Shown one piece after another: positions 40,763 to 64,000 of a stretch of 64,000 bases of DNA. Numbering within the stretch: the stretch's first letter is position 1; each line of letters begins with the position of its first letter. The DNA is taken from assembly GCA_014905635.1 (NCBI GenBank), contig JABVCE010000042.1:1-64000 (forward strand), given 5' to 3'. This DNA comes from Scenedesmus sp. PABB004 (lineage: Eukaryota). A program made the position numbers and the translations under genes. The notes below the pieces were generated by a model, which was given only the letters and a program-made list of their open reading frames with translations, made no database searches and was not told where the DNA came from.

Positions 40763-41517
40763 GGCTGGCCTCGCTACGACGCGAGACGCTGCAGGCACGA
40801 GCTTACGAGGCCGTCGGCGCGCCGGCGCGGCGCGTGGGCAGGTGCGGGCGCTGCGCGCGGGGCGCCAGGCCTCTCGGCGCGGATTCGCGGCGAGGGATGC
40901 CACGCTGACCGGCGTGTACGAGAGTGGAGGCTGGCGCGACGTCCGGGCAGCGAATGCGCCCCAGGCGCGCCGCGCACGCGCCAGGGCAGCCCGCCGGTCG
41001 GGGTCACTGCTGCTGCGCCCGGCACTCGGTGCACGTTGTCGCCCGCACGCCCGGCCCCAGCACGCCAGACCGTTCGCCGTCCAGCACGCAGCAGCGCAGA
41101 CGCTGCGGGCGCGCAGAGAGCACTGCTGCTCGGCCGGGCAGCAGCAGCAGCAGTCGGTCGCTCGCGCGCCGCGGCTTCGCGCGCCCGTGCAACGCGCGTC
41201 CGGCGCTGATGCGCTGATCGCCCGCGCGCTGCGAACGCACAGCACGGCGAGCAGCATGCTGCAGCCCAGCCTAGGCCGCGTGCGGCCGCCCTGCGGCGCG
41301 CCGGGGGCGCGAGGGGCCGGCCCACGGCCCGCCAGCGCGGCGCCGCGCCAATCCGGGCGGCCCAGCCGGCGCAGCGGCCTGGCGAGGAGCGCAGGTGCGG
41401 GGCGGGCGCGCGCGGGCGCCGGGCGCGCGTGTGTGCGGCGCAGAGCTGATCAGTACCCCCCCTCGCGCTCGCACGCGCAGGCAAGGAGCTGGAGCCGTTC
41501 GCGCTGGTGAGTTGGTG

Positions 41518-44500: not shown

Positions 44501-47500
44501 CCGAGCTCAGCGGCCGCCTCGCGAGCGGCGCGGACGGCAGCAAGGAGCTGCGCGAGTCGCTCAAGGAGCGCGAGGTGCGGCGGCGGCGGCGCACGCGGGA
44601 GGGGCAATGATTCAGGGGCGCCGGGGGCGCGGCTGGCGCGGCGCAGGCCCTGCCCTGCCCCCGCGCGGCCGCGGCGGCGGCTGCGGCGCCTCACCGGCCG
44701 CGCCGCCCGCACCCGCGCCCGCGCGCCCGCGCGCCAGGCCGCGCTCGAGGCCGCGCAGGCCGACCTGTCTGAGCTGAAGGACGAGCTCAAGGCCGCGGTG
44801 AAGCGCGAGGCGGCGAAGGCGCTGGAGCTGTCGCGCGCGCAGCAGGACCTGCTTCTCGCGGAGAAGGCGAGCACCAAGCTGCAGGCGGAGCGCGACGACC
44901 TGGGCAAGAAGGTGCGGGGGCCGCACCGCTGGCGCCCGGCGGCGGCGGCGGCGGCGGCGGCGCAATGTGCATCGCTGCGCGAGCGCGCGGGCCTGGCGGC
45001 GCTGCTGGCCGCGCAGGCGCTGCTGCTGCCGACGCGCGCGGCCGCGGCCGCGCCGCCGCCGCCGCACGCAGGTCATCGCGCTGCGCAGCAGCCAGCTCAA
45101 GGCGGAGCAGGCGCTCGCGGACGCGGCGACGGCGGAGGCCAAGCTCGCCGAGGCGGGGCAGCAGCTCGCGAGCGTGAGCGCGCAGCTCAGCACCGAGATG
45201 GCGCGCGCACAGAAGCTCGCGTCCGAGGTCGGCGGCGCCAAGGAGGCGGAGAAGGTGCGCCGGCGGCGGCGCCAAGGCCCGGCGGCGCGGCCCCAGCGCG
45301 CGGGCCCCGCCCGTCCTGCGTCCGCGCTCGCGCCGGCCGCCCCCCGCTGGCCGCGCCGCCGCTGCCGCCGCCCTCACGCCGCCCGCCGCGCCGCGGCTTG
45401 CCACGCCGCAGAACGCGCTCGCCAAGCTCGCCGCCGTGCAGGCGGCGCTCGAGGACCAGGCGAGCCTCGCGACGAGCCGCGGCGACCAGGTCGGCCAGCT
45501 CAGCGCGCAGCTCGACGCGCTCAAGGCGTCCCTGTCGGCGATGAGCGAGGCGGGCGCGGAGGCCAAGCAGTTTGCCGCGCAGCTTGACGAGCGCGACAGC
45601 ACGATCAAGGTGGGGCCGCGGCGCCCGGGCGCGTGCGGCGGGCCGGGGAGGCACGCGGCGGGGCGGGCGGTGGGAGGGCGGCGGGCGGGGGCGCAGAGGG
45701 AGCCGGGCGGCGCCGGCGTGCGCGCCGCGCGCGCCGCCGCCCTGACCCTGGCCGCGCCGCGCCGCGCCGCGCCGCAGGAGGCGCGCGCGCAGCTCGAGGC
45801 GGCGCAGCAGCAGAACAGCCAGATGTCGCAGCAGCTCGCCGCGCTCAAGCAGCAGCTCGCGGCGGCGAGCGCCGCGCCGGACGCGGCCGAGAGCGCAGAC
45901 GCGCAGGCGGCGCAGGCGCGCGCGGTGGAGCTGGCGGAGCAGGTGCGGTTGTGTGCTGCGCGCCCGCGCGCTGGCTCCGCGCCCAGAGGACGGCCGCGCG
46001 CCGCGCTCGCTCGCGCCCCTCCCTCCCTCCGCCTCACGGCCTTTCCCGCCCGCGCGCGCAGGTTGCCAAGCTCCAGGCGTCCCTGGCCGCCAAGGACGCT
46101 GACATCGCCAGCCTGGCCGACAAGCTCGAGGCGGCGGTCGAGGCGGCGGCGGGCGCGACGGCCGCCGCGGCGGCCGCCGGCGCCGGCGCCGCGCCGCGCG
46201 CCGCCGGCGCGGCGGCCGGCCCCGGCGACGCGGCCGCGGCGGCCGCGCTCGCGGCGGCGCAGGCGCAGGTGGACGAGGCGGTGCGGGCGCGGGCCACGCT
46301 GGAGAAGGAGGCCTCGCTGCTGCGCGCGTCAAATGAGAACTACGCGCAGCAGGTCGACACGCTCACGCTGCAGGTGCGTCGCCGCTCGTGTGCCTGCAGG
46401 GGGGCGCCGCGCCCCGCCGCGGCAGCAGCGGCGCGTGCGCTGCCGGGGCGCGGGCGCGCGGCCGACGCCTCCCTGCCCGCGCCGCTCCTCCCGGCGCCCG
46501 CGCAGGTGTCGCAGCTGGAGGCGAGCATCGGCGAGGCGACGCAGCAGTCGAGCCTCGCGGTGGGCCAGCTGCAGCAGGTCAAGGCGCTCGCGCTGCAGGA
46601 GACGGAGGCCGCGGCCGCGATCCTGGGCAAGGCCGAGCGCCTGATCAAGAGCCTCGCCGAGCAGCGCGCCGCGCAGCAGCAGCGCCAGGTGCGGCGGCAG
46701 GGCGTCGGGGCGGGGCGTCGAGAGGGGACGCGGGGTCGCGGCTGCCGCCGGGCCGCCTGCCCCGAGGACCGCGCCGGCCCGCCCGGCGCGCGCCGACGCA
46801 CGCGCGCTCCCTCCGCCCGCGCGCAGGTGACCGCCGCGGCGGCGGCCGCGGGCGGCGCGGCGGCGGAGACGGCGCTGCGCGGGCAGGTTGCGGAGCTGCA
46901 GGTCAAGCTGGCGGAGCAGGCGGACATTGCCAACGAGGCGTCGGCGCGCGCGGAGCAGCTGGAGGAGGACCTCGCGGGGCTGCGCGCGGAGGTGGCGCAG
47001 ATGCGCCGCTCGGCCACGATCACCGGCGGCGGCGGCAGCAACGCGGCGCTCGCGCAGCTGAACGAGGAGGTCGCCGCGCGCGAGGCGGCGCTCACGCAGC
47101 AGCTCGCGGCGGCCGAGGCGCGCGCCGCGGCGGCGGCGGCGGAGCGCGAGGCGACCCGGGCGCGCGTGGTGGCGCTGGAGACGGAGCTGCGCCAGAAGGA
47201 CGTCGCGGCGGAGGAGGCCGCCGCCGCCGTCGCGGCCGCGGGCGGGCGCGACAAGCAGGTGCGGCGCGGCGCCACGCCCTCCCTGCCCGCGCGGGGGGCG
47301 CCGCCGCGCCGCGGCCCCGACGCGCGGGCCCGCGCGCGCGCGCCGCCGCGCTCACCGCCGACGCCGCCGTGCGTGCACCGCGCTGCGCCGCCGGCCTCAG
47401 GTCGCCAGCCTCGTCGCGCGCGTGTCGAGCCTGGAGGCGCAGAACACGCAGCTGCGCGTCGCCGCGGCGAAGCGCGAGCAGGTGCTGCAGCAGTCCAAGA

Positions 47501-47640
47501 AGTTTATCGAGTCGCACCTCGCCCGCTGGTCGCCCAACGGCCCCAGCGGCGGCGGCGGCACCGCGACCGCGGCCGCCGCGCCCGCCACGGCGCGCGGCCA
47601 GCAGCAGCCCGGCGCCAACGGGCGCCAGGAGCGGCAGTGA
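41518..47640 (+). CDS. Long coiled-coil protein, possibly plastid-targeted; many exons, start approximate
   Basis: Exons rich in E/Q/A/L/K heptads (LEELLEVKEALQEQLDAANAQL, EVAALKAQLEAQKKELEE, LRGQVAELQVKLAEQ), mostly phase-0 introns; R/A/S/P-rich start MLGTSRPRAAHG; TGA at 47638-47640. Confidence 0.75.
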
Positions 47641-48155
47641 GCCCGTGTGTGTGTGGGAAGGGGGGGGGGCACGCGGGGGCTTCCGGCACTGTACAGAAGG
47701 CGGCGGCTGCGCGCGTGCGCGGCGGGGCTAGGGTCGGGGGCGAGCCGGGAGCGCGCCGGAGTCGTGGTCGGGGCCTGCGAGCGTGAGTGTTGCGTCTTGT
47801 GTGTGGCCCGCCCCTCTCATGGGCGCGCCGGGCTGGCGGGCGGGCGGCGGCAGGGCTGGCGGCGGCGAAGAAGAGAGCTGTGTGCAGGGGCGCGCGCTTG
47901 TGATCAGGGCGCCACTGCGCTTGCAAACGGGCCGCGCGGCGTGGTTTTGACGAGCGGGCGGCGCCGCGGGCCTGTCGACCTCCGCAGTACCCAGCATCCA
48001 GTCACTCCGGCAGCCGAGAGCGGACAGCGGCGGTCTGCTTTGCTGCCCAAGACCGCCACCCCGCGGCGGCAGCAGCAGCAGCAGCCGCAGCAGCCGCAGC
48101 ACCCAGCGCCAGGCCCAGCGCGAGCTGCCCGCGCAGAGGGCGTGGTCGCTGCAGC

Positions 48156-49636
48156 ATGTGGCCCGCGCAGCTCGCGCACGCGGCGCGGCTGCAGGCCGGC
48201 AGCAGCGGCGGCGCGGCCGGCGGCTGCTGCAGGCGCGCGCAGAGCGCAGCCGCAGCCGCGCGCTCGGCCCCAGCAGCCGCGGCTGGGCTGGCGGCAACTC
48301 AGCGTGGGGCCGCGGCCGGCCGCCGGGGGTCGTGCCGGGCCGCCGCTGCTGCTGTGGCGGCCACGCCCCCACAGCAGTCGGCGGCGGTCGAGCCCGGCGG
48401 CACCTCAAGCGCGGTGGAGCCCGCCACCGAGGCGCGGCTGTACGCCCTTTACGACTACGTCGCCGCGCACGGCAGCCTGCCGCCGCTGCAGGCGCAGCAC
48501 CGGGGCGTGCCGGTCGGGCGCTGGGCGGAGGAGTGCAGGTGCGGGGCTTGCGCGCGAGCGGCGGCGGCGGCGCAGCGCGGCGCAGCGCGGCGCAGCGCGG
48601 GCGGCGCGCCTGCAGCAGAGCTCCGCCGCTGCCCCGCAGGCGCGCGCACGCGGCGCAGGAGCTGGAGCCGCGCCTCGCCGAGGCGCTGGCGTCGGTGCCG
48701 GGCTGGGCGTGGGCGCCGCAGACGGCGAAGCTGGCGGAGCACTTCTCCGCGGCGGTGCAGCAGCTGCAGGCGTACCAGCGCACGCACGGGCGGCTGCCGC
48801 CGACGCGGGTCAACGCCAAGCGCGCGCAGGGCAGCGCGGAGACCGCGGCCGCGACGGCGCTGTGCCGGCAGGTGCGCGCCCGCGCGGCGCGCCGCCCGCC
48901 GGCGGAGCGTCCTGCGCCCGCGGCGCTTGGGCCGCGCGCCGGCGCCGCTCGGCCCTCAAGACCCGACCCGCCGCCGCCCGCAGCTCATGGAGCAGCGCCG
49001 GCGCGGCGTGCTGACACAGCAGCAGGTCGACGCCGTGAGCGCGGCGCTGCCGGGCTGGCGCTGGGACGTGCGCGTGCGCTCGCCGCCGCTCGACGGCCTG
49101 CTGGTCGAGCTGCGCGCGTTTGCGGCGCGCGAGGGCCGCCTGCCGCGGCAGGACGAGGTGCGCGCGGGGCGGTGGCGGGCTCGCGCGCAGCGGGCGGCGC
49201 AGCTGCGCGCGGCGCGGGCTGACCGCTCCCCTCGCCTCCCTCCTCCGCCCCCCCCCCTTCTCTGCGCCCTGGGCAGAAGCTGGCCGGGGGCTTCCTCATT
49301 GGTGAGTGGTGCGCCGCGCGACGCGGCGAGCACGCGCGCGGGTGGCTCGAGCCGGACGTTGCCGACGCGATCGCCGCCGGCGTGCCGGGGTGGGCCTGGT
49401 CCCCCGCCGACGCGGCGTTCGAGGCCAACCTGGCGCTGCTGCACGCCTTCGTCGCGGCGCACGGGCGCATGCCGAGCCAGCGCGAGGAGCACGGCGGCGT
49501 GCGGATCGGCGCCTGGTGCAACAAGCGGCGCCTGCAGTGGAAGCAGGGCGGCCTGCCCGCCGACCGCGCGGCGGCGCTGGAGGGCGTGCCGGGCTGGTGG
49601 TGGAGCTCGAGCGACTGGGGTGAGGAGGAGGCGTGA
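48156..49636 (+). CDS. Helicase-associated (HA) domain repeat protein, about 4 repeats, no helicase core
   Basis: RLYALYDYVAAHGSLPP..VGRWAEECR..LASVPGWAW; LRAFAAREGRLP; FEANLALLHAFVAAHGRMPSQREEHGGVRIGAWCNKRR..LEGVPGWWW. Confidence 0.8.
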
Positions 49637-50109
49637 GGCGCCGCCGGCGCCCCGCGCGCGGTGCCCGCTCGCGGCCGCGGCCGCTGCGCTTTTGTGACAA
49701 GCGCCAGCCGGCCTCGCGCGCTCGCGTCCGCGCCACTTGAGCACTCGCCGAGCCTTCGCAGCCGCAGCCGACACAGGGTGAGCGCGGTGCTGGCCGGCCG
49801 GCGCCCAGTAGGGGGAGCCCCGCGCGCTCGCGGCCCGCGGCGGCCTGGCGCGCCCGCCCGACAGCTCCCCCAACCAGCAGTCAGCTGTGAGCGCCAGCGC
49901 GGGGCAATTGGCGCCCGCGCGCGGGGGTGCAGCACGAGAGCAGCACGGGGCGACGTGGCGCGCCAGGGCCGCCAGGAGCTCCGCGGCCTGCCCGACGCGC
50001 CTCACTCGCGCGCCGCCTCACGCCCGCGCAGGCAGCGCGCCCCGAGCGCCGTCCGCACGGTGGCGCGAGCAGCGCCGGGTCCGACACCGCGTCGGCGGCA
50101 GCGAGAGCA

Positions 50110-53100
50110 ATGGCGGCGGCGCTCGCGCCGTGCGCTGGAGGCGGCGCGCTCGCCAGCCCGACGCGCGGCAGCCCGGGCAAGCAGGCGCCGCGCGGCAGCC
50201 CCGTGCGGCCACTGCCGCCGCCCGCGCTGAGCGGCCTCGGCCGGCGCTGCGCGGCGGCGCTCGCGAGCGCGGCGCCGCCCGCGCCGCGCTCGCCGCGCTC
50301 GCCGGCGCGCCGGCAGTGCTTCGTGCCGCGCGCGAGCAGCAGCAGCGCCGCGAGCGGCAGCGGCCAGGTGGGCCCGCCGCCGGGCGGCGAGCAGCCCGGC
50401 AGCCGCGCGCGCAGCCCGAGCCCCGCCGCGGCGTCACAGCAGCAGCAGCAGCAGTCGCAGCAGCAGTCGCAGCAGCAGTCGCAGCCGCCCGCCGCGGGCG
50501 CGCCCGGCGCGGCGGGGCAGCTGCCGCCGGCGGTGCTGCCCGCGCTGGGGCGGCTGCCCGCGGGCGGCGCGGCGCCGCAGGCGGCGGCCGAGGCCGAGGC
50601 GGCCGCGGCCGTGCGGGCGACGGCGAGCGTCGCAGACTTTAGCGAGGGCGCGCCGGCGGACAGCCCCGCGCACGGCGGTGGCGCGGCGCCGGTGGGCGAG
50701 CTGGGCGCGCTCTTTGACGCGCTGCAGGCGCAGGTCGACGGCGGCGCGCCGCCCCGCGCGCTCGCCGCGAGCCTGATGGGCGCGGTGCAGCTCGCGGCGG
50801 CGGACCGGCTGCCCGTCGCCGCCCTCATGCCGGCGCGGCGGCTGCCGCTGCTGCTCGGCCTGCTGCGCGGCGAGCCGAGCGTCGCGGTGCTGTCGGCGGA
50901 GGTGCTGTGCCGCGTGTGCGCGCAGGAGCTGGGGCCCTGGGCGGCGCAGCTCGCGCCGGCCGTGCCCGCGCTGCTCGCCGTCGTGCGCGACGCGGCGGCG
51001 CCCGGCGCGGCGCCGAGCGGCGGCGACGCCGCCGGCGCCAAGGGCGTGCCGCTGCTGTTCTTCGCGGTCAGCGCCCTGGTGCGGCTCAGCAGCGTGGAGG
51101 CGCTCGCGCGGGCCATCGTCGCCGGCGGGGGCGTCGCCGCGCTCGTCAGCGCGCTGCGCGTCGCGCCGCCCGCGGTCTGCCAGGTGGGTGGCTCTCGCGG
51201 GCGCGCGCGGCCCGGCGCGCTGTGCGCCTCCCCGCAGTGGGCGCGGCTGTACGCGCGCCGCCCGGCCTGAGCCCTGAGCCCTGAGCCCTGAGCCCTGAGC
51301 CCTGAGCCCTGAGCCCTGAGCCCTGAGCCCTGAGCCCTGAGCCCTGAGCCCTGAGCCCTGCGCCCTCAACCCCGCAGGTGACCACGTTCAGCCTCTTCCG
51401 GCTCATGCGGGAGGTGGACGGCGACCTCAGCGAGGAGGAGCTGGCGGCGTGGAGCCCCGTGGGCCGCGGCGGCGGCGGCGGCGGCGCCAGCGCCGTCGCC
51501 GCGCAGGCGGCGCGGCTGTGGAGCCCGAGCGAGGACACGGACGAGAGCATCAGCGGCGAGCTGCTGCTGCTGCAGTACGTCCGCGCCGGCGCGTTCACCA
51601 AGCTCTGCGCAATCCTGGGCGAGGTGCGGCGCGGCCTGGGGACGCCGGCGCGGCGCGGCGCGCGGCGGCGCTGCGCGCCCGCGACCGCGCTCACCTGCTG
51701 CCCCCCCCCCCCCCCCGCGCCGCGCAGGTGCGGGAGGGCTCGGCGCACGAGCTGGCGTTCAGCATGCTGCTGTCGCTGGCGCTCATCCCAGAGGTGCAGC
51801 GCCTGGTTGTCGCGCAGGACGAGGTTTCGGCCATCGTGAAGGTGCGGCGGCGGCGAGCCCGGGCGCCCAGCTGCTGGGAGCGCTGCGGGGCGAACGCGCG
51901 CCGACCGCGCGCTCCGCCGCACGCAGGTGCTGGCGACGAGCGCCTGCCCGGCGACGCGGCTCGAGGCGGCGCTGGTGCTGGCGCGCCTCGCGGCGCGCTG
52001 CACGCCGGCGCAGCAGGACGCGGTGCGCGAGGGCGCGGTGCCGCGGCTGGTCTCGATGATGCAGGAGGGTGAGTGCTCGCGCCTGCCTGTCTGCGCGCTC
52101 GAGACGAGGTCGGGCCCGGGGCCGTCCGGGCGCCGCGGGGCGGCGCGCCGACGCGCGCGCGGCCGTCCGCCGGCGCCGCCGCCGCCGCAGGCACCGACGA
52201 CGAGCGCTGCCACGCGGCGCGCCTGCTCGCCATCCTGGGCCAGCACGGCTCCACACACCAGGTCATCATGCAGGCCGGCGCGCTGCCGGTGGTGCTCCAG
52301 CTGCTGCGCGACCGCGGCGCCCGCGCGGCGCCGCGCGCTGCGCGCGGCCCGCCGCCCACCTCGGGCGACGTGGCCGGCGGCGACGCCGGCGCGGCGGCGC
52401 CGCCCGCGCCCGCGCCCGTGGCCGCGGCCGCGTCGGCGGCGGGGCGCACGTCGCACGTGTGGGCTACCGCCCAGGCGGTGTACCATACTGCTGTCGCGGC
52501 CGGCATGACCAGCGAGGAGGCGAGCAGCGCGGCGGCCGCCGCAGCCGCGGCGGCGGCCAACGCGCCGGCGCTGGACCACGACGAGGCCGGCGCCACGGTG
52601 CCCGTGGCGGCCGTGGCGGCCGTGGCGCCCGTGGTCGCGCACGTGGCGGTGCCCAGCGACGGCGCGGAGTCGCCGCCGCCGCCGCCGCCGAGCAGCCCGC
52701 GCGGCGACGGCGACGGCGCGGGCGGCGTCGGCGGCGTGGGCCCGGAGCTGGTGCTGGAGCAGGCGGTCGGCGTGGCGTGCATGCTGTCTCACAACCCGGA
52801 CAACCACTTCACCATGGTCGGCGAGGGCCTGGTGCCGCTGCTGGTGGCGCTGCTGCACAAGGGTGAGCGGTGGAGGGGGGGGGCGGGCGCGCGCGGCGAC
52901 GGAGGGCGCGGGGCGGGGTACGCCGCCGCGCCGGGCGTGGCGCGGGGTGGGGCTCCCGCTCAGCTGCTGCCGGCGTCGCCGCCGCCGCAGACACGCCGAG
53001 CAAGACGTTGACCTACTGCCTGGCCAGCCTGCTGATGCTGGCCACGGCCGAGCCGCGCCACGCCGCGGTCGTCGCGCGCACGGGTGCGCCCCCGCCGCCG

Positions 53101-54444
53101 CCGCCGCCGCGCCGCGCTGCCTGCGCGCCGGCGCGCGCCGACGCCCGCCCGCCGCCGCGCCTGTTCGACGCGCCCGGTGCCCAGGCGCGGTGACGCTGCT
53201 GGTCAACGTCGCGCGCGAGTGCCGGCACAAGCCGATCAACCGCGAGCTCTCGGCCGCGCTGCTGGGCGTGCTGTGCCGCAGCCCCGACGTGCAGGTCGAG
53301 GTGGTGGCATCGGGCGGCATTCCCGCGCTCGCGCGCCTGCTCGGCGAGGGCACCGACGGCGCGCGCTGCTACGCGTGCGAGGCGCTCGCCCAGATCGCGG
53401 CGGCGTCGGACGTGCGCTGCCGCCTCGTCGTGCGCGCGGGCGCGCTCGCGCCGCTGCGCGGCCTGCTCGCACCGGGGAGCAGCTCGCTCGCGCTGCTGTG
53501 GGGCGCGCGGCTGCTCAAGGCGCTCACGCAGGTGCGCGACGCGCGCGCGCTGCTGGAGCGCTGCCGGCCGCGCCGCGCACACGCGCACGCGGGGGGCCCG
53601 GAGGCCGTGCCGCGCTGCGCCGCCGCTCACACGCACACGGTCGCCGCGGCACGCACGCCCCCCTGCTTGCTTTCCCTGCCACCAGGACCGTGCGTCTCTC
53701 AAGGAGATTGTTGAGACCAGCGGGCTGCTGCCGCTGCTGCCCGAGGTGCTCTCGCGGCGCGCCGGCGACGCGGCGTGGCCGGCGGCTCCGCCCGCCGGGG
53801 GCGCGGCCCGCGGTGGCGGCGGCGCGCCGCTCGCCGAGCCCGGCGCGCCCGCGCTGCCCGCTCCGCTGTCGGCGGGCGAGGCGTCGGGGGCCTGGCTGGA
53901 GGAGGGCCCCGGCGGCAAGGCGGCGTCGCCAGACCCGGAGCTCGAGCGCGCGCAGGCGCAGCTGGCGTGGGTCGTCGCGGCGCTCGCCGGGGACCGGCTC
54001 ACGCGGTGTGTGTTTGCGCGCGCGCGCGCGCGCGCGCTGCGCACCCCGCGCCCGGCGCCGCGCACACCCCGCGCGCTGGCTCACGCCCGCCGCCGCCGGC
54101 TCGCGTCCGTGCGCAGGCGCGCCGTGGCCGAGGCGGGCGGCGCGCTCGTGCGGCCACTCGTGGGTCTGCTGCACGACGCGCAGGCGGGGCGCGGCGGCGG
54201 CTACACGCTGCCGGAGCTGCTCGAGGGCCTGGCCAACTGCCGCCAGGCCGCCGCGGGCGCCGCGCTGCGCGCGCTGTCGCGCGCCGACGACCGTGCGGCG
54301 TCGGCGATCAACGCCGAGCTCGCGCTGCAGCTCTGGCTCGGCCGGCGCGTGGAGCTGCCGGCGCTCGTCGAGGACTGGCCGCCGTCGGTGCCGGGGTGGT
54401 GGATCGATGCCCTCGGAGACGACGAGCCCTGGGGCCCGCTCTGA
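50110..54444 (+). CDS. Armadillo-repeat protein; spliced
   Basis: Repeated ARM signatures IVAGGGVAALVSAL, VREGAVPRLVSMM, IMQAGALPVVLQLL, VVASGGIPALARLL, VVRAGALAPLRGLL; TGA at 54442-54444. Confidence 0.85.
51266..51360. repeat. (CCCTGAG)n array, about 13.5 copies, intronic telomere-variant-like heptamer
   Basis: Perfect heptamer array ending ~17 nt before the acceptor at 51377; shorter copies at 35955-35982 and degenerate ones at ~18860-18905. Confidence 0.95.
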
Positions 54445-55212
54445 GCGCGGCGCGGCAGCTCCGTGGCGGCTTGCACGTGGCGGCTGTCGCGGCATTCGTT
54501 GGGCGGGGAGGGGAGGGACAAAGATGGCTGCTCTCTCTCTCCCTGCGCAGGCGGCCGCGCAGCTGCGGCGCCGTCCACGTCCTGGGATCAATCTGGCCGA
54601 GCGCGGGGCGGCCTCGCGCAGCCGCAGGCGGCCGCCCGCCAGTGCGGCGCGGCGGCGAATAAGGCGGGCGGCCATGCGGCCGGCAGCCTGCACAGCAAGC
54701 AGCACACCTCACCAGGCAGGGCGGCGCGCACGCGCGCCGCGTGAGGCGCGCGGCCTCCCACCGCCGCCCAGCGGCCGTGTACACAGATTTTGTTTTGCAG
54801 CCGGCAAGCGCAGGCGTAGTAGCTGGAGGGGGGCGCGAGTGCAGCAGCCTGCACCCGCCCGGTAGATATATCCGCGCGAGGACGGACTCGTTGCTGCCGG
54901 CGGCGGCGGCGGCGTGCGCGCGCGGCGGGCCAGCGCCCGGCTGGCGCGCGGGGGCGGGGCTGGACTTGGCGCGGGCGCGACGGCGCGCGCAGCAGCAGCA
55001 GGATGGCGCGCGGGGATGCGACGCGGCGGCGAGTAACGCGGGCCGTCGGCCCTCGCGTCACACGCGCTTGACGCCCAACCTGGGCCAGATCCGCGCACCG
55101 CGCCGCCACGGCCCTGCCGCACCCCGCCAGCGGCGCGACCCCGACTGCGCGCGCCTTGCCCCGCCGGCGGCCCGTGAGCAGCGCAGCTCCGCTCAGCTCA
55201 GCTCAGCTCAGC

Positions 55213-58200
55213 TCAGGTCCAGGTGTTGCGGTCGCGCAGGCAGTCCAGCATGACCCACTCCACCGCCTGCGCCACGCTCACCACCTTGGTATACCTGTGG
55301 CGCGCAGGCGCGGCGCGCGCGGCGCGGTCAGGGGGGCGGGCGCGGCGGCCGGCGCGTGGCTGGGCGGCGGGGCCTGGCGCGGCGCGGCACGCATCAGCCC
55401 CCGCGGCGGGGCCGAGCCGACGCTCACCAGTTGCCGAGGAATCGGTGCATGTAGGGGTCCTGTGGGAGGGAGGGGGCACCGAGGGCGGGTGGTGCGGGGG
55501 GTGAGGGAGGGCGCGGGGGCGCGCGTGGTGGGCGGGCCGCGCGTGCCGGCGGCGGGCGGCCACCCGCGGGAGTCGGGCCCGCCGCGTGCGACAACCCCTC
55601 CTCCCCCTCCCCCGCCGCACCTCGGTCGCCGCGCGCATCGCCGCCGCACCGCCCGGGCCGCCGGCGCCGGGCGGCGCGGCGTCGGCCTTGGCCCGCGCCT
55701 CAACGATCGAGTCACTCGTGAGCACGGGCGAGCGCAGCAGCACCGACCCGGGGCGCGCCCCGTCGCCGCCGCCGCCGCCGCCCGCCGGCTGGGGCTCAAA
55801 GGTCATCGCGCCCTCGCGGATGAACTTTTCGGCGTTGATGTCCGGCGCGGGCGCGTCCGGCCCAAACGCCAGCTCCCAGCCGGCCGCGTCGTAGCGCGCC
55901 GCCGCGCCGGGCGGCACCGCCGCGAGCGCGGCGGCGAGCGCGTCGGCGTTGAGCGCCGCCGCGGTCGTGCCGTCGGCGTACGTGCCGGCCAGGCCGAGCG
56001 CCTGCGCGGGCGCGGCCGGGCGGGAGCGTCTAGGGTTTAGGGTTCGCTCGGCGATCGGCGCTTGGCGCCGCTCGGCTCGCCTCGGCGATGGCCTGAGGGC
56101 GCTTGAGCTTCAGCCAGTACTCCGGCGCGGCGGGGCGGCTGTTGGGCAGGGCGTCGCGCGGGCGCACGAGGTTTGGCAGCGCGAGCAGCGCGTGGACCAG
56201 CACGACGACGCTGCCGTCGGGCTGCGGGCTCAGCAGGGGCTGGTTGTAGAGCAGACCCTGCGTGGGTGGGGGTGTGGGTGGGAGCAGTGCGTGGGAGCAG
56301 CGCGTGGGAGCAGCGCGTGGGCGTGAAAGGTGTGCGGGCGCGCGTCGAGGGCGCGTGGAGCGCGCGGAGCGGCAGGCTGCGCGGCGGCGGGGGGGCCCCG
56401 CCCCGCCCCGCGTCGCCCCGCGCCGCACCTCGACGTCGGTGTGCGTGCACACGACGACGCGCAGGCGCGCGAGCGCCTCGCGCGGCAGGCTGGACGCGAG
56501 CTTGAGCTGCGCCGCCGCGACAAAGCGCTCCGCCTTGGCGACCACGCCCGGGTGCAGCGCCGCCGACACGCGCGCGCCCGCCTCGCGCCGCGCGCCCTGC
56601 AGCAGCCGCGTGGGCGCGCTGGGCGCGCTGGGGAGGTGCCCGCCGCCGCCCGCGCCGTGCGGGTGCGCGCCGGCGGGCGCGTCGAGGCTCGCGGTCGACT
56701 CGGGGCCGCCCTGCCGGCCGGTCACCCACGCGGCGCAGACGTCGCCCATGCCTGCGGTGCGGCGCGGCGCGGCGGTGCGGTGCGGTGCGGCGCGGCGCGG
56801 CAGGTGTGCGCGTGGTGCGCGCCGCAACGGCCGCCGCCTCCCTTCCCTCCCTCCCCCTCCCCTCCCCTCCCCTCCCCTCCCCCCCCCCTCCCTCCCCCTC
56901 TCCGGCGCGCCTGAGGCCATGACCCAGGGCTCGATGAGCTCCGCCGTCTGCCGGCAGCGCAGCAGCAGCTCGTCGGCCGCCGCGGCCGATGCGCGCCCGC
57001 CCGCCGGCGCGGCGTGGGCGGTCAGGAACGCAGCAATGCACTCCGCGAGCGACGCGGTCGCGGAGGCGTAGGGCACTGTGGCCCTGATGATGTCACCGCG
57101 CTCTGTGTTGAGCACGTTGTTGGACGTCTGCGCGTGGTTGGCGCCCGGGACGAGCACAAACGGCGCCTGCGCCGCGGCAAACCTGGCGCGCGGCGCGCGG
57201 CGCGCGGCGGCGCGGGCGCGGCGCGCACAGCGCATGAGGGGCGAGCGGGGAGCAGGGGGCGGGGAGGGGGGAGGTGCGAGGCGGCGCGGGCGCGGGGGTG
57301 CAGCGCTCGTGATGCGGCAGCGCGTGTCGCACGCACCGCGGGCCGGCCTTCTGCGCGAGCACCGCCGAGTCAACGGCGAGCGGCGCCATCCAGGGCCAGC
57401 GCATCTGGCCGTCCAGCTCGCCAGACAGCGTCAGCACCGGCCTGCGCGCGGTCGCGTGAGCGCGGCACGATGGCGGCGGGTGCGCGCGACGCGCGCTGTG
57501 TGACGGGCCGCGCGCCGCCTCCGCCCCGGGCGCCGCCGCGGCGCGCCCCCGCGGCGCGGGCGGGGCGCGCGCACCGGCCCCAGTCCTCCATGCAGGGCAG
57601 GCGGCCGTGGGTGTAGCGGCCGTCGAAAGTGGACGCGAGCAGCACCAGCCCCGCGACGCCCTTGAACGCGGCGGCCGACAGCGTCACGCCCGCCGCAGAC
57701 TGGGCGCACAGCCAGAGGTTGGTCACGCGGCCTGGGCCCAACGCCGGCGGCGGCGGCGGGGGCGGCGGCGGCGAGGGGCACCGGGCTGGGCTCGGGCCCA
57801 AGAGGGAGGGAGGAGGGCGCGGGCGGCCGGCGGCCAGCGGCCGGTGCACAGGCGCGGCGCGGCGCGGCGCTCACCCCAGCCCGCGGTGCGGGGCTTGAAG
57901 CCCGCCGCCGCGGCCGCGTCCTTCACCTCTGCCAGCAGCGCCTCGATCGCGCCGCCGGTGCACATGAGGTCGTACGCCTGGCGGGGAGCGCGCGGGGTGG
58001 ACAGCAATTGGGGCGAGCGGGCCGCGCGGCGTCGGCCGGCCGCTGCGCCCGCGGCTTGCTTTTGCCCGCACGGGTGCGGCCGGCGCGCCGCTCGTGCGCC
58101 GCCCGGTCCGCGCCTCTGCGTAGGTCTTGCCCGGGTGCGCTGCCATCGTGGCGGCGATGAGACCCTGGTAGTCCAGCGCCATGCACGCCGCCCACAGCCG

Positions 58201-58821
58201 CACGTCGGGCGCGGCGGCCTGCGGACGCGCGGCGCGGCGCGGGGCGGCCGCGGCCGGGCCTCGGGCCTGCGCCCGCCGCCCCTGCTTCCACAGTCACACA
58301 CATTCACGCACACGTCGCACACACGTCGCACGCGCGCACCTGGATGGCCGCAGCCAGGTGCGTGAAGTCGGCGGGGCCGACGGTGAAGCCGGGCGCGATC
58401 ACCAGCAGTGCCTCGCTCTCCGGCGGCGCCGTGTTGCCCGCCGGCGGCGCTGGACGCGGCGCGGCGGCGGCTGCGGCGTGAGCAGGGCGCGCGCGCGCGG
58501 CTCGCCGCCGCGCCGCGCCGCGGCCGCGCACGCACCGAGCACGATGTGCTGCTGCGCCGCCGTCGCCGGCGCGGCCGCGGCGGCGACGCCGCGGCGCGCG
58601 CGCGGCGACAGGTGCGTGGGCAGCATGCCGCCGGCGGCGTGGCGGCGCGCGCGGGCGGCCTGCGCGGGGCGGAGCGGTTGCGGCGGGTGCGCGGCGCTGC
58701 CGCGAGCGCACGCACGCGCGCGAGCGGCGCGCCGCGGCGCCGCGGATCGCGCCTGTGTCGCTGTGGTGGCACCGCCGGCGCCGGCGCCGCGCCGGGCGGT
58801 GGCCAGGGCGCCGCGCTGCAT
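55213..58821 (-). CDS. Alpha/beta-hydrolase-fold protein with C-terminal extension; start at 58821 or 58626
   Basis: LLVIAPGFTV (oxyanion region), LWLCAQSAAG (nucleophile elbow), GLVLLAS, VLTLSGELDG (Asp), VPGANHAQ (His); stop at 55213-55215. Confidence 0.7.
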
Positions 58822-59057
58822 CGCGCGCGTGGCAGCGGCAGCGGCGCGCGTGCGGCGGCGGCGCGTGTGGCGGCGAGCGGGAGCGGCGCGCGATTCGCGG
58901 TGTGGGCACGGGTCGGACAGCTGAGCTGGGCACCTCGAAGGGGCCCGGGCTGCGCTGTGCCCTGGGGCGTGCCGTCTCGCCGTGCCCGTTCGCGTCCCGT
59001 GCTGCCCGCGCCACCTCACTGCTGGTTCCCACCGCAGCGCCACCGCCTCCCCAGCCC

Positions 59058-59675
59058 AGGGAGGACGTGCGCCGCGATCGCCCGCCTGCAGCAGCAGGCG
59101 CAGCAGCAGGCGCAGCAGGCGCAGCAGGCGCAGCAGGCGGGGCAGGCCGGGCAGGCGCAGCAGGCGCAGCAGGCGCAGCAGCAGGCGGGGAGGCGGCCGG
59201 CGGCGCGGGCGACCGCTTCGTGCTGCGCGGCGTCGCGATCGCGACCTGCTGCCACCACCGCTGCGGCTGGCGGGCCTTTGTCGGCAAGGAGGCACTGGCG
59301 GCGCACGGCCTCGGACGGGCCGAGTTTGAGGCCATCGCCTGGCTCAGTAGTTGGGCGGTGTGCGGGCACGAGGCCCCGGCCGCGCTGAGCATGGCGACGG
59401 CGCAGCGCGGCGACGCGGACGCGGGCGCCGGCGCCGGCTACCACCCGGCGCAGCTGCTGGACCGCGAGAGCCGCATGGCGCTGGGGCTGCGCTGCAAGCA
59501 GCTGCTGGACGCCGCGCGCTGCGCGTGGGCGGCCGGCGTGCTCGCGCCAGCGCTCGGGGCGGCGGGCGCCACGCGCGCCGCGGCGGGCGCGCGGCGCGTG
59601 ACGTACGTTGACGAATCGATGACGGGAGAGAACGCGCTGCTGCTGGTGGCCGGCGCTGGCGGGCAGGGCTGCTGA
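59058..59675 (+). pseudogene. TRM13: Isolated C-terminal exon of tRNA:m(4)X methyltransferase TRM13
   Basis: GVAIATCCHHRCGW, WLSSWAVCG, LGLRCKQLLDAAR, YVDESMTGENALL*; no N-terminal Zn fingers or SAM-binding part seen upstream. Confidence 0.7.
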
Positions 59676-59989
59676 CGCGGCGGCGGGTGCGGGCTCCGAG
59701 GCGTCGTCGTCACCGGTTGCTCCTCCGCAAGGGATCCCTTGCGCGCCGCGGGCCGCGCTGGCAATAGCGCTCGCTCGCTCGCTTGCCTGATCGCTGGCTC
59801 CCGCGCCTGTTCTCCGCGCCTGGGCGTGCTCCCCGGCCTCGCTACCGCCGTGGGAGCGCCGGCCGGTGGTCTCAACACCGGCGGCTGGGGGGATGGGGGC
59901 TGCCGGGGCGCCCCGGGGGGCGCCCCGGCGCCGCGGGCGCGCGGCGCGCGTGCGCGGCGCTGCCACCGCCGCGCGCGCGCCGCCGCCGC

Positions 59990-60240
59990 CAACACCGACC
60001 ATGGGCATCCTCTGATCGCCGGCCGCCTGAAACAGGCCACAGCGGCGTGAGGCATGACGGTTTGGGACCGGCCCGTCGGTCGGTGCCCCCGCGAGGGGGT
60101 CCCCCCACCCGGAACGGGTGACAAGGCGAGAAACGCACGCGCACACGCCTGACCTAACCTGGCAACACAACACAACAGCAAGAGGCCTTTTAACGTCCTG
60201 CCCAGGACGGAGAGCGCAGCGCACCGCACACGCCGCTCAC
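59990..60240 (-). ncRNA. Candidate Fanzor omegaRNA scaffold
   Basis: Lower-GC, structure-dense segment directly after the nuclease stop, with at least six hairpins and two crossing helices (59993-60000/60078-60085 and 60064-60069/60098-60103). Confidence 0.6.
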
Positions 60241-62052
60241 GCCGGGGGGTCCACCGCGGCGGCGGCCGCCTGCCGGAACGCGCCGGCGAGGCGCGCGCCG
60301 CCCGCCGTGCCGCGGCCGCCGCGCAGCAACTCGTGCAGCGTGAGCGCGCAGATGTTGCGCGCCGCGTTGTCGTCGCGCGGCGCGACGACCGTGCACCCGG
60401 GGCACTGCACCAGACCATAGATGCCCCGCAGCTTCTCCACGCGCGCCCCGCAGACAGAGCAGGTGACGCTCGTGCGGTGCTCGTCCATGAGCACCGCGGC
60501 GACGCGCCGGCGCGCGTAGTAGGTGCGCAGCAGCGCCAGCAGCGCCTGCCGCGGCGGCCCCGGCCCCGAGATGCAGCCCCCCATGCCCAGGCTGGCGTCC
60601 CCGATGCCCAGCACCACCGCGGGCAGGTCGGCGGGCAGGCGCGCGTGCTGCCGGACGCGCCCGCGCACAAAGACCCGGCCGTATGCAGTCAACTGAATCG
60701 CCGCATGCAGCGCGCGCTGCTTCAGCCCGTGCTTCCGCAGCCGCCACGCACACTCTGCACGGCACGCAAGCAAGCTATATGCGAATGCATTGTTGAGCAC
60801 ATGATGCACCCGGCCGTTGCGCCACGCCCCGGCGGCGGCGACGCTCGTGCCCGAGTATGCAGGCACGCGGTTCAGGCAGGCATGCACGCAGTCGCCGCCG
60901 CCGGGCGGGCGGCGGTCGTACCGCCCCGGCCGCCCCGGCCGCCCCTGCTGCCACAGCCGGTGCTGCTCGATCCCGCGCGAGTCGCGGTGTGCGGCGGTCT
61001 TTATTCTAATGATGCGCTCCGCCTCGTAGCGGCGGCCGTGGTCGCCGCGGTGGCGCGGCGCGTTGGGGCAGCGCCGCTGCGCGATGCGGCGGTGCGCGAC
61101 GCGCGTGCAGCCCGGGCCCTGCCGCCAAGTCGCGGCACAAACCATGCGGGCCCGGCCCGGGTCGACTCCGACGACGCGCACGCCCGCGTGCACGGCCGCG
61201 GCCGCGCCGCGCAGCGCGTGCCCCGGCGGCAGGCCCTCCACGCCGCGCAGCTCGCACGGGTCGAGCGGCAGCGCGTCGAGCGCCGCCTCGTCGGCCACGC
61301 CGTGCGGCGCCAGCGCGTCGCAGAGCAGCCGCCGCGCTGCCGCCGCGCCCGCGCGGTGCTCTGCCGCGCGCTGCGCCGCCTTGGCGGCGCGCGACTGCTG
61401 GCCGCGGCGCGGGGCGGGGTCGGTGGCGCCCTCAACGCGCACGCGCACGTGCAGCGCCGCCAAATCAAACGTCACCGAGCCCGCGAAGCGCGTGTTGGCG
61501 TGCAGCACGCCGCGCGCGCGCCCGGGGCGCCGGCCAAAATGAAAATATGCATCCCAAACGGGATCGTAGCCCCCGCCCTCCTGGGTCGGCGGTGGCGGCG
61601 GCGGCTGGCCTGCCGGCTGGCCCGCAGCGGGCGCCCTGGCCTGGCGCGCGCGCAGCGCTGCGTCCAGCGCCTGCATGCCCGAGGTGGACAGGTGCAGGTG
61701 CTGGGTGCCGTACTTGGGCACCGGCGCCAGCGTGAAGGCGCGCCGCTTGGGCAGCGCCACGCGCGCGGCGTGCCGCGAGCGCAGGCCGCGCAGCACCTTG
61801 CACGCGCCCGCGACCGCGACGAGCGCGTCGGGGTGCTGCCCCGCGCCGCCGGCGCGCTGCGGCGGCTGCGCGCCGCCGCTGCGGCCGCCGGGCGGCGCCG
61901 GCGCCGCCGGCGGCGGCCCCGCGCCGGCGGCGGTCGCCGCAGCCAGCACCGCCTCGAGCGTCGCGCACACCGCGCGGCGCCAGCCGGCCGAGACATCGCG
62001 ACGCAGCGCCGCGACAGCCGCCGCCGCCTCCTCGAGCGTGCGCGGCGCGGGC

Positions 62053-62088
<36 letters not shown>

Positions 62089-64000
62089 GCCGGCGGCGCC
62101 GGCGCAGCGCGACCCTGCGCGGCCGCTGCGGCGCCAGGTAGCCGCGCGCGGCCGCCAGGTAGCCGCGCGCGGCCGCCAGTCGGGCGCCGCAGTCGCCCAG
62201 CAGACGCGCGCCCTGGTCGCGCGCGGCGTGCGCGGCGTCCGCCGCGCGGCGGGCCGCGTCCGCGTCAGGCGCCGCCGCCGCGCCGTGCGGTCGCGCGAGC
62301 CGCCGCTGGTGCTGCACGAGCGCCACGTCGCGCTCGTGGTGCTGCACCACGGCAGCCTGCCACTCCGCCTCCACGGCTGCGAGGTCGGCCTCCACCGTCG
62401 CGTCGCCGGCGGCGGTCAGCGCGGCCAGCGCCAGCCGCAGCCGCTCCGCGGCCGCGGCCGGCAGCGCCGCGCCCGGCCCCTGGCCCGGCGCCGCGCCCGG
62501 GCCCTGGCCCGGCGCCGCGCCCGGCGCGGCGCCTTGCCCCCGGGCGCGGAGCAGCCGCGCCTCCGCGACGGCCAGCCGGCGCCGGAGCGCCGCCGCGTGC
62601 TCGTCCTTGCGCTGCAGGCGGCGCAGCCGGTTGCGCGCGTGGTCGGGCGGGCCCGTCATACCTCCCTGGACCGCAGCGCGGCTGGCGACCTCCCGCTGCA
62701 GGTCCTTGAGGGGTTCCTTGCGCAGACGCACGGCCGCCTCGCTGGCATCCACGGCGGCGCGCAGGCGCTGCACCGCCGCCTCGAGCTTGCCCAGCTCGCG
62801 CGCCCGCTGCAGCTCGCGCAGGCGCGGCTCCTGGGCGCTGGCGTCCAGCAGCTTGGGGGGCGCCGGCGGACGCTGGCCGCGGCTGCAGCTGCTGCTGCTG
62901 CCGCTGCCGCTGCCGCTGCGCCCGCTGCTGCCGTCCAGCGCCTCTGCCAGCGACTCGACGGCCGCCGCGAGCGCGCCGGCCGACGCCGGCTCCGGGGCCG
63001 CCCCGAGCGACGCGGCGCGGCGCAGCATCGCCTCCAGCGCCGGCCGCGCCGCCGCGCCCTGCTGGGCTGCCAGCGAGTCCGCGAGCCGCGGCGCGCAGGC
63101 AGCAAACATGTGCTGCTGGCCGAGCATGACGACAAAGTCGCGCGCGACGCGGCGCGCCATGGCGTCGGCGTCGCCCTCCCGGTACGCCAGGCCCTCGAGC
63201 TGCCGGGCCAGCGCCGCGCGCCAGGCGTCGTAGGCCGTGTCGTGCTGCTGCCGCGCCGCCGCGCCCGCGCCGTGCGCCAGCGGCTCCGGCGGCTGCGGCA
63301 CGAGCGGCGCGCCCCCTGCCTGCGCGCCCGCGTCCGGCGCGCGCGGCATGCCGCTCCGCGCCCAGTCGAGCACGCGGCCGTGCTTGCCGGCCGCCTCGTC
63401 CGACTCCCAGCGCTGCAGGCCGGGCGTCGCCTGCGCCCCTGCCGCCTGGCGCGTGCGCGCCGCGCCGGCCGCGGGCGCGCGCGCCTCGCCGTCCGCCGCC
63501 GCCGGGAAGGGCTGCTCCAGGTGCAGGCGCATCCGCGCGAGCATGTCGCGCATCATCGCCATGGCCAGCCGCAGCCGGCCGGCGTCCTGGCCGTCGCCCG
63601 CCGCCGCGGGCACCACGCCCTCGCCCGGCTGCAGCACGCCCTGGCGCTCCCAGAGCAGCGGCGACGCGCTGTACAGCAGCGCCGCGCCGCCGGCGATGAG
63701 GCAGTCGCGCGCGGCGCGGCTGGGCGTGCCGGCGCAGCCCGCGGCAAACCACGCCTGCAGGGCGGCGGCGTCGAGCGCCTTCTCCAGGCGCTCGCCGTCG
63801 GCGAGGTGGAGCTGCAGGTTGGTGTTGTACAGCTCCGCGAGAGGGTTGACGAGGTCGTGGTGCAGGCGGCCTGTGACCCAGGCCGGCAGGGGCACGCGCT
63901 GCAGCTCGTTGACGCCGCAGGCCTGCTCCAGCGCGTGGCGCAGGTCGCTGGACAGGCCGCCGCCAACGCGCCGCCAGTTGCCCTGGCTAAAAAAGTTCAT
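60237..64000 (-). CDS. Fanzor: Fanzor1-type (TnpB-like) RuvC RNA-guided endonuclease, >=1250 aa, one apparent 1-nt frameshift near 62132, 5' end at window edge
   Basis: VVGVDPG (D 61161-61163), LGIGDAS, LMDEHRTSVTCSVCG (E 60480-60482), CPGC, RDDNAARNI (D 60372-60374); upstream FTLAPVP..LHLST, WDAYF..FAGSVTFD and LYNTNLQLHL blocks. No intron evident over 3.7 kb. Confidence 0.9.

Follow-up and report, generated by a model that had tools for sequence, protein, structure and literature searches.

The window analysed here comprises positions 1 to 64,000 of contig JABVCE010000042.1 of Scenedesmus sp. PABB004, that is, a stretch of 64,000 nucleotides (nt). Its minus strand carries an open reading frame (ORF) of 577 codons, running from 61970 to a TGA stop at 60237-60239, that belongs to the Fanzor-type homologues of TnpB, and behind the stop lies a 3′ non-coding tail that is the candidate source of an omegaRNA (also termed fRNA or reRNA). 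GC content is 75-83.5% across the whole window. Because the contig also holds an exon of the TRM13 tRNA methyltransferase gene, an Arm repeat (within 52509-53711 on the plus strand) and many exon-like segments whose reading frames shift from one to the next, we conclude that it is eukaryotic nuclear DNA of about 80% GC. The Fanzor and TRM13 genes are convergent, lying tail-to-tail with a gap of 561 nt between them. The features on which the argument draws are as follows.

60237..61970, minus strand: core ORF of an apparent Fanzor1-like RNA-guided nuclease, recognised by PF07282, motifs, periodicity of GC at third codon positions (GC3), relatives and a fold search
59991..60236, minus strand: 3′ non-coding tail, candidate omegaRNA-coding region, delimited by GC composition, contig cover and analogy with the literature
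59991..60125, minus strand: sub-domain of the tail that folds above controls, with two hairpins (60101-60125, core 60106-60120; 60086-60099) and a multibranch domain
60194..60209, minus strand: perfect inverted pair of 7 base pairs (bp) with a 2-nt gap, effectively 6 bp and a tetraloop, absent from the minimum free energy (MFE) structure
59901..59990, no strand assigned: simple, palindromic GC tract of 93-97% GC, with a perfect 13-bp palindrome at 59902-59914/59917-59929
62051..64000, minus strand: upstream coding frame of at least 650 codons with strong GC3 periodicity, in another frame than the Fanzor core, running off the window
58482..59675, plus strand: last exon-like frame of TRM13 (PF05206, E 8.1e-25; stop at 59673-59675)

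An earlier reading made from the letters alone, hereafter the sequence-only reading, had assigned the ORF ending at 60237 to the Fanzors, and this assignment holds. The translated frame matches PF07282 (the Cas12f1-like TNB domain) with an E value of 4.5e-10 (40 bits against a cut-off of 26.3), and a HMMER scan of 1.84 billion representative proteins returned 27 relatives at E <= 0.001, the best of them 34% identical (E 2.9e-20) and the closest aligning along all 577 residues. A word-based protein search gave no match at E <= 0.001 among 8000 candidates; low-complexity words probably swamped it. The core contains GVDPG (residues 268-272), GIGDAS (455-460) at the canonical RuvC-II position, where relatives have GxGN/D, MDEHRTS (495-501) with the alternative glutamate, a CSVCG/CPGC zinc finger (504-526) and RDDNAARNI (532-540). 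Residues E497, C504, C507, C523, R532, D533 and N539 are invariant in an alignment of seven sequences, and the catalytic aspartate, the alternative glutamate, the later aspartate and the zinc finger are all intact. The TNB zinc finger and the RuvC-III RD motif place the protein in the TnpB/Fanzor superfamily. Within it, DPG at RuvC-I and the alternative glutamate ('Ealt') beside the TS-zinc-finger point to the Fanzor/pro-Fanzor clade, as these two are described as signatures of Fanzors and their closest TnpBs (PMC10711439). The further mark of a Fanzor, a eukaryotic or eukaryotic-virus genome, is given by the TRM13 exon and the Arm repeat.

Structural comparison was of low resolution. An AlphaFold2 model built from 28 sequences has a mean predicted local distance difference test score (pLDDT) of 59.7 and is good for the RuvC/TNB half only, most of the N-terminal 260 residues lying below 50. 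When this model was compared with the PDB by Foldseek, SpuFz1 took ranks 1-4 (E 9.6e-6 to 7e-5), a weak match with template modelling (TM) scores of 0.26-0.28 and 14-15% identity, and the mimivirus Fanzor2 structure and ISDra2 TnpB followed at ranks 10 and 20. A sequence profile run against the PDB placed the mimivirus Fanzor2 protein L79 first, over the TNB domain only, and the nearest protein-atlas clusters consist of Nucleocytoviricota and Chlorophyta proteins with PF07282. Judged from its sequence, the ORF is a divergent Fanzor1-like nuclease with intact catalytic residues, although the integrity of the present copy is doubtful.

The guide RNA of characterised Fanzors has been mapped to the 3′ non-coding region by the right end (PMC10432273; PMC10711439), and for Chlamydomonas Fanzor1c it maps to the 3′ untranslated region (UTR) of the mRNA, with an fRNA structure given in PMC10530073. 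The tail at 59991-60236 has the equivalent position, and its composition sets it apart: its 30-nt blocks have 50-87% GC (mostly 50-73%), and the flanks on both sides have 87-97%. An omegaRNA region would agree with this position, with the protein family, with a predicted nested stem where a guide would adjoin, and with finding the tail both in a decayed copy and in an RNA library. For these reasons we lean, if only slightly, towards the view that the tail is the omegaRNA region of a Fanzor1-type element. Of what the sequence-only reading had claimed for the DNA behind the stop, the omegaRNA region itself is probable by analogy, whereas the pseudoknot, the element end and the guide that it proposed are unsupported. 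Were our view right, minus-strand transcription of the tail would yield the omegaRNA, which would either be the 3′ UTR of the Fanzor transcript itself or be derived from it, and the Fanzor nuclease would bind this RNA. The last scaffold element would be an ordinary stem (60085-60077/60001-59993), and about 15-20 nt of flanking sequence after this stem would act as guide, the right end of the element deciding which letters these might be.

All arms of the inverted pairs that had been listed for this region are present in the sequence, each exactly where it had been placed. They are CGTCCTG/CAGGACG at 60194-60209, CACCCG/CGGGTG at 60106-60120, C5/G5 at 60086-60099, GGGACC/GGTCCC at 60064-60069/60098-60103, a nested stem within 60006-60056, the long-range pair AGCGGCGTG/CACGCCGCT at 60041-60049/60229-60237, and CACCGACC/GGTCGGTG at 59993-60000/60078-60085. 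The part of the tail from 59991 to 60125 folds on the minus strand with -72.3 kcal/mol, better than all but four of 200 shuffled controls (z -2.41, a value somewhat flattering since the segment was picked after the fold was seen), and the MFE structure makes up 0.24 of the ensemble. In a sliding scan the same segment scored z -2.46 (minus strand) and -2.86 (plus strand), and 45 windows of 135 nt taken at random from the contig all stayed short of its z-score (minimum -2.04). The last of the listed pairs, 59993-60000/60078-60085, is predicted with a pair probability of 0.99-1.0 as an ordinary nested closing stem. As a 9-bp helix (60077-60085/59993-60001) it closes the multibranch domain and persists when the sequence is folded in 250- and 270-nt contexts, and we regard it as a candidate for the guide-adjacent stem.

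The same calculations do not bear out the pseudoknot that had been proposed to lie next to the guide. The crossing helix, GGGACC/GGTCCC, has a pair probability of 0, and forcing it raises the folding energy from -72.3 to -65.0 kcal/mol, a cost of 7.3 kcal/mol, and abolishes the first, 8-bp helix; these probabilities come from a nested ensemble, and the energy argument on a pseudoknot is crude. The crossing helix also overlaps the C5/G5 hairpin. In nested-ensemble folding, the tail shows no pseudoknot involving guide-adjacent bases, the feature of TnpB- and Fanzor2-type omegaRNAs, and is instead predicted to have the terminal double-stranded stem without pseudoknot that is typical of the Fanzor1 type. 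This matches what is reported of Fanzor1 RNAs: the SpuFz1 omegaRNA 'lacks the pseudoknot structure' of TnpB (PMC10432273), and Fanzor1 reRNAs, those of insect-virus Fanzor1s included, carry a stem where TnpB and Fanzor2 carry the pseudoknot (PMC10711439). The Fz1 structure paper uses the word 'pseudoknot' 0 times and describes a conserved 7-bp first stem-loop followed by variable stems (PMC11423790). On these predictions the scaffold is nested rather than pseudoknotted. The hairpin at 60194-60209, in which no difference occurs among the variants listed from related contigs (described below), may correspond to the first stem-loop of Fanzor1 omegaRNAs, which has 7 bp. A motif of the UGUAA type, an algal polyadenylation signal, was not seen when the minus-strand tail was read by eye.

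A sequencing-run index revealed that 14 runs of eight studies, one of them an RNA run, hold part of 59400-62400 (best share 0.28). Contigs of four of these runs (X1, X5, X6 and the RNA run X12) were aligned to 57500-64000 at 80% likeness, and the variant counts given here are counts among the variants listed from them. DNA contigs from three runs of three studies cover the tail: X1 over 60057-60953, with 12 differences, X5 over 60087-60274, and X6 over 60017-60822 in three pieces (60017-60274, 60377-60619 and 60676-60822), the first joint of which is shared by the X5 contig. Three contigs of the X12 metatranscriptome (60019-60199, 60062-60199 and 60170-60276, the last without a difference) also fall in this region and represent at least two haplotypes. 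Over 60017-60276 the contigs of the four runs are about 95-100% identical to our sequence, and they may stem from paralogous copies or from the same locus in other strains. In the form seen in X5 and X6, nine other letters replace 60275-60376 and RDDNAARNI is lost, and 60620-60675 (56 nt) is skipped as well, by which the frame is shifted. As far as its sequence tells, this form is a decayed copy that still keeps the tail. Such a pattern has a precedent in Chlamydomonas, where internal deletions are common among Fanzor1 copies, 3′ ends are intact, and extra RNA-only copies occur (PMC3627910; PMC10530073).

Variation within the tail gives weak evidence, too little for a claim of covariation. Six of the 12 tail substitutions listed fall on positions unpaired in the MFE structure, in which 71% of positions are paired, and two others keep their pairing by wobble. 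A substitution at 60099 is matched by the loss of one base at 60086, which converts C5/G5 to C4/G4 in X1 and X12. Where contigs begin, at 60017 (X6) and 60019 (X12), or finish, at 60276 (X12), the assembly has probably branched, and these points are unlikely to be ends of an RNA or of an element; the loose end of X12 at 59958, in the simple GC tract, is probably unrelated sequence.

Two observations concern contig depth. Summed X12 depth over the ORF part 60321-61839 is 0.5-2.1, with no long clean piece among those listed for it, and lack of cover there proves nothing. Depth over 60057-60971 is 29-31.7 in X5 and 13.3 in X1, compared with 2-8.1 and 4.4-6.8, respectively, on the TRM13 side or at 62600-64000. 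The excess resembles the 3′ over-abundance known from Fanzor elements of Chlamydomonas, but the depth of contigs does not measure copy number, and it is not usable as evidence.

A considerable set of results weighs against our reading of the tail, and several of them suit the proposal that it is an ordinary or relic 3′ UTR of a decaying or domesticated Fanzor-derived gene, with no working guide RNA and with stems that are a by-product of GC content. The Fanzor1 WED motif TDG, present in three aligned relatives (P0003, P0006 and P0015), is replaced by FDL at residues 168-170 (61461-61469, minus strand), which may be a sign of decay or reflect an altered RNA contact. The core lacks an in-frame ATG ahead of residue 99, a position behind its first conserved block, and the frame must therefore be joined to an upstream exon or be broken. 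The coding frame switches near 62050-62115, leaving the core out of frame with the region upstream. Taken as a set, the inverted pairs are at chance level: 59991-60240 contains eight perfect stems of at least 6 bp (mean 7.84 in 300 dinucleotide shuffles, P 0.53) and two of at least 8 bp (0.54 in the shuffles, P 0.12), and its longest stem has 9 bp (P 0.15). Tight hairpins number six against 1.95 expected (2000 shuffles, P 0.0125), and six or more also occur in 65% of the 510 overlapping 250-nt windows into which the 64 kb were divided. Nor does the whole region of 59971-60240 fold better than shuffled sequence on the minus strand, as had been predicted of it (z -0.22, 80 of 200 shuffles folding equally well; plus strand, z -1.84); without the proposed guide (59991-60240) the minus-strand z is -1.31. 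Between 60036 and 60350 the minus-strand windows score z +0.14 to +0.89, and since folding is equally good on both strands, it fixes no strand. Rfam returned no match at E <= 1 for 59000-61000 on either strand. The X12 contigs come from one assembled metatranscriptome in which DNA may be present, and they carry no strand and no ends and do not prove transcription. In the decayed X6 contig the tail has seven substitutions and six gap letters over 258 nt (60017-60274), and the ORF part has seven and six over 243 nt (60377-60619), so that conservation is no higher in the tail than in the ORF; three of the 12 listed tail substitutions break predicted pairs. Finally, no second copy with flanks was retrieved from the window or from the metagenome, viral and prokaryotic genome collections. 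A blastn comparison of 59501-64000 with the window gave GC-rich low-complexity matches only; the related loci on metagenome (34) and viral (61) contigs match in the TNB zinc-finger region only, none in the tail; a gapped two-hairpin pattern had no match in prokaryotic genome contigs or in viral contigs; and a search of genome contigs with P0001 produced 104 pattern matches, none of them confirmed. A visibly decayed related copy whose tail diverges as fast as its ORF, and a window in which no transposon ends or inverted repeats were found, would also be expected of a plain UTR. Such a UTR, however, accounts poorly for the intact catalytic residues and zinc finger, for a frame that is coding over its full length by codon-position GC (0.82-0.98 at third and 0.54-0.69 at second positions) and whose seven changed codons relative to the X1 haplotype are synonymous in four cases and conservative in the other three, for a sub-domain that outfolds all 45 background windows, and for a tail that persists in a copy lacking the RuvC-III motif and recurs in an RNA library. 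We consider the plain UTR an unlikely explanation overall, albeit one to be taken seriously.

The remaining alternatives differ from our reading in where they put the end of the element, and one of them in the fold. According to the sequence-only reading, the tail is a TnpB-style pseudoknotted omegaRNA at 60240-59991 in an element that ends at about 59991, and 59990-59971 serves as guide. The arms of this structure exist, composition steps from 93% to 60% GC (30-nt blocks) at 59990/59991, the well-folding domain ends at 59993, and TnpB and Fanzor2 RNAs do carry a guide-adjacent pseudoknot. The composition step and the end of the folded domain are the two indications of a putative end at this point. 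A sharp stop of conservation near 59990 had been expected, but the one contig that reaches this position, from X5, bridges it: it joins 59916 to 59985 with CA between them, skipping 59917-59984, and with at least 62 letters on its shorter side it stays collinear over the proposed end, while 14 of the 20 bases of the guide are missing from it. The minus-strand guide letters had been quoted correctly. However, the guide had been read from the change in composition and is a low-complexity motif formed by the last 20 nt of the GC tract. It has 92 other matches with at most three mismatches in the window, where 21.25 are expected, and a nuclease loaded with it would therefore hardly be specific. 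Considering also that the crossing helix is not predicted to form and that the protein apparently groups with Fanzor1, whose RNAs reportedly have no pseudoknot (PMC10432273; PMC10711439), we judge this model very improbable. An element that is longer is improbable too, if less so. In this case the tail would still be related to an omegaRNA, the mobile unit would run through the GC tract to a right end near 59810-59890, the true guide would lie further downstream, and the palindrome at 59902-59929 would perhaps be a Helitron2-type subterminal hairpin. The bridging contig agrees with such an extension, as does another X5 contig that matches the TRM13 side over 59622-59807 (186 of 326 letters) and then has no match. 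No other 135-nt window in the area is as structured as 59856-59990 (z -3.72, minus strand), which owes this to palindromes such as that at 59902-59914/59917-59929, and the Chlamydomonas Fanzor1 families are Helitron2 elements with a 3′-terminal hairpin, frequent internal deletions and intact 3′ ends (PMC3627910). Yet the bridging contig may represent the same locus in another strain, in which case it is uninformative, or another copy, in which case the end would lie further downstream, and half of the palindrome is missing from it. Palindromes of high GC content occur often along the JABVCE010000042.1 contig, neither a CTRR-like end nor an asymmetric inverted repeat could be recognised, and the left end would fall beyond 64000, outside the window. 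A comparison of 59700-60100 with 61900-64000 for inverted repeats gave only GC-rich simple matches.

One idea builds on the omegaRNA reading, and we hold it to be improbable. Because a frameshifted copy without RuvC-III keeps its tail and at least two tail haplotypes occur in the RNA library, decayed copies might be 'ghost' omegaRNA loci that supply guides in trans to a few intact Fanzors, with the N-terminal region of at least 650 residues, which belongs to no family, providing a further activity. A relative of the core on a metagenome contig of 61% GC (L002, 352-1674, plus strand) has GVDPG, GMGDAA and IDEHRTS and no RuvC-III motif, and its ORF enters a long acidic (D/E) tract before the contig ends. 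This is apparently another altered member of the family.

The region upstream of the core bears on how intact the present gene is. The frame at 62051-64000 matches no Pfam family and gave no usable Atlas match. It is either an N-terminal extension or exon, joined to the core by a short intron, or it has been set off by a frameshift near 62050-62115; alternatively, it may be a separate gene of the same element. A 29-nt GT..AG stretch at 62086-62114 (minus strand) would fuse both coding frames exactly, but it is too short to be named an intron with confidence. The junction contains (CAG)11 at 62055-62087 and, at 62138-62179, a perfect tandem duplication of 21 nt that encodes AARGYLA twice, and these repeats make a slip of assembly or replication a plausible cause of the frame change. 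One X6 contig omits a single nucleotide at 62167, and this would not restore the reading frame.

The closest parallels are found in Chlamydomonas reinhardtii, in the CRe-1/2/3 Helitron2 elements with CrFNuc-1 and its fRNA. Like these, the present gene is apparently of the intron-bearing Fanzor1 kind seen in green algae, a decayed copy keeps its 3′ tail, and the nearest atlas clusters include Chlorophyta proteins. In contrast, similarity in sequence to this family is not detectable (34% is the identity of the best relative in any group), the window yielded no Helitron2 ends, the genome has about 80% GC, and at least 650 codons upstream belong to no family. SpuFz1 of Spizellomyces punctatus (PDB 8GKH) is the top structural match of the predicted model, a weak one with a TM score of 0.28, and the conserved 7-bp first stem-loop described for Fz1 may be compared with the 6-7-bp hairpins at 60194-60209 and 60105-60121. 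However, its scaffold has 75 nt and spans a 30-nt inverted repeat, whereas the tail here has 246 nt and no inverted repeat was found. ISDra2 and IS607 TnpBs and the Fanzor2 reRNAs share the RuvC nuclease superfamily and an RNA at the 3′ end of the gene that runs past the right end into the guide. They differ in needing a guide-adjacent pseudoknot (PMC10711439), for which the crossing helix here gives no support, and the present protein apparently groups with Fanzor1.

Should the omegaRNA be confirmed, the few known pairs of Fanzor and RNA would gain one whose Fanzor1 is very divergent and comes from an alga-like eukaryote of extreme GC content, and it could be useful for comparing scaffold architectures. 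The known picture would be left unchanged, since the position, the predicted nested guide-adjacent stem and the 3′ ends kept in decayed copies follow the Fanzor1 pattern. The case also holds two lessons of method, namely that hand-picked inverted pairs, even those of 8-9 bp, occur at chance level in a genome of 80% GC, and that Fanzor1 should not be assumed to have the pseudoknot of TnpB.

Some further observations were made along the contig. The 8-mer CAACACCG occurs on the plus strand at 59873-59880 and again at 59990-59997, flanking the GC tract at 59881-59989; the pair could be due to chance or to a duplication from the insertion or expansion of this tract. An exact 16-mer from the tail gave 19 matches to viral contigs, which we rejected as chance because they extend no more than 17-22 nt. 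Genes on the contig mostly lack Pfam-type annotation in the libraries used, and a long run of exon-like segments with shifting frames at 41500-54500 (plus strand) contains no Pfam family except one Arm repeat. Within TRM13, 59019-59235 has the highest summed contig depth (95-397) in all four aligned runs, and the pieces listed there carry many differences. Contigs of other organisms are probably drawn there by a TRM13 motif, GC-rich or conserved, that is widely shared.

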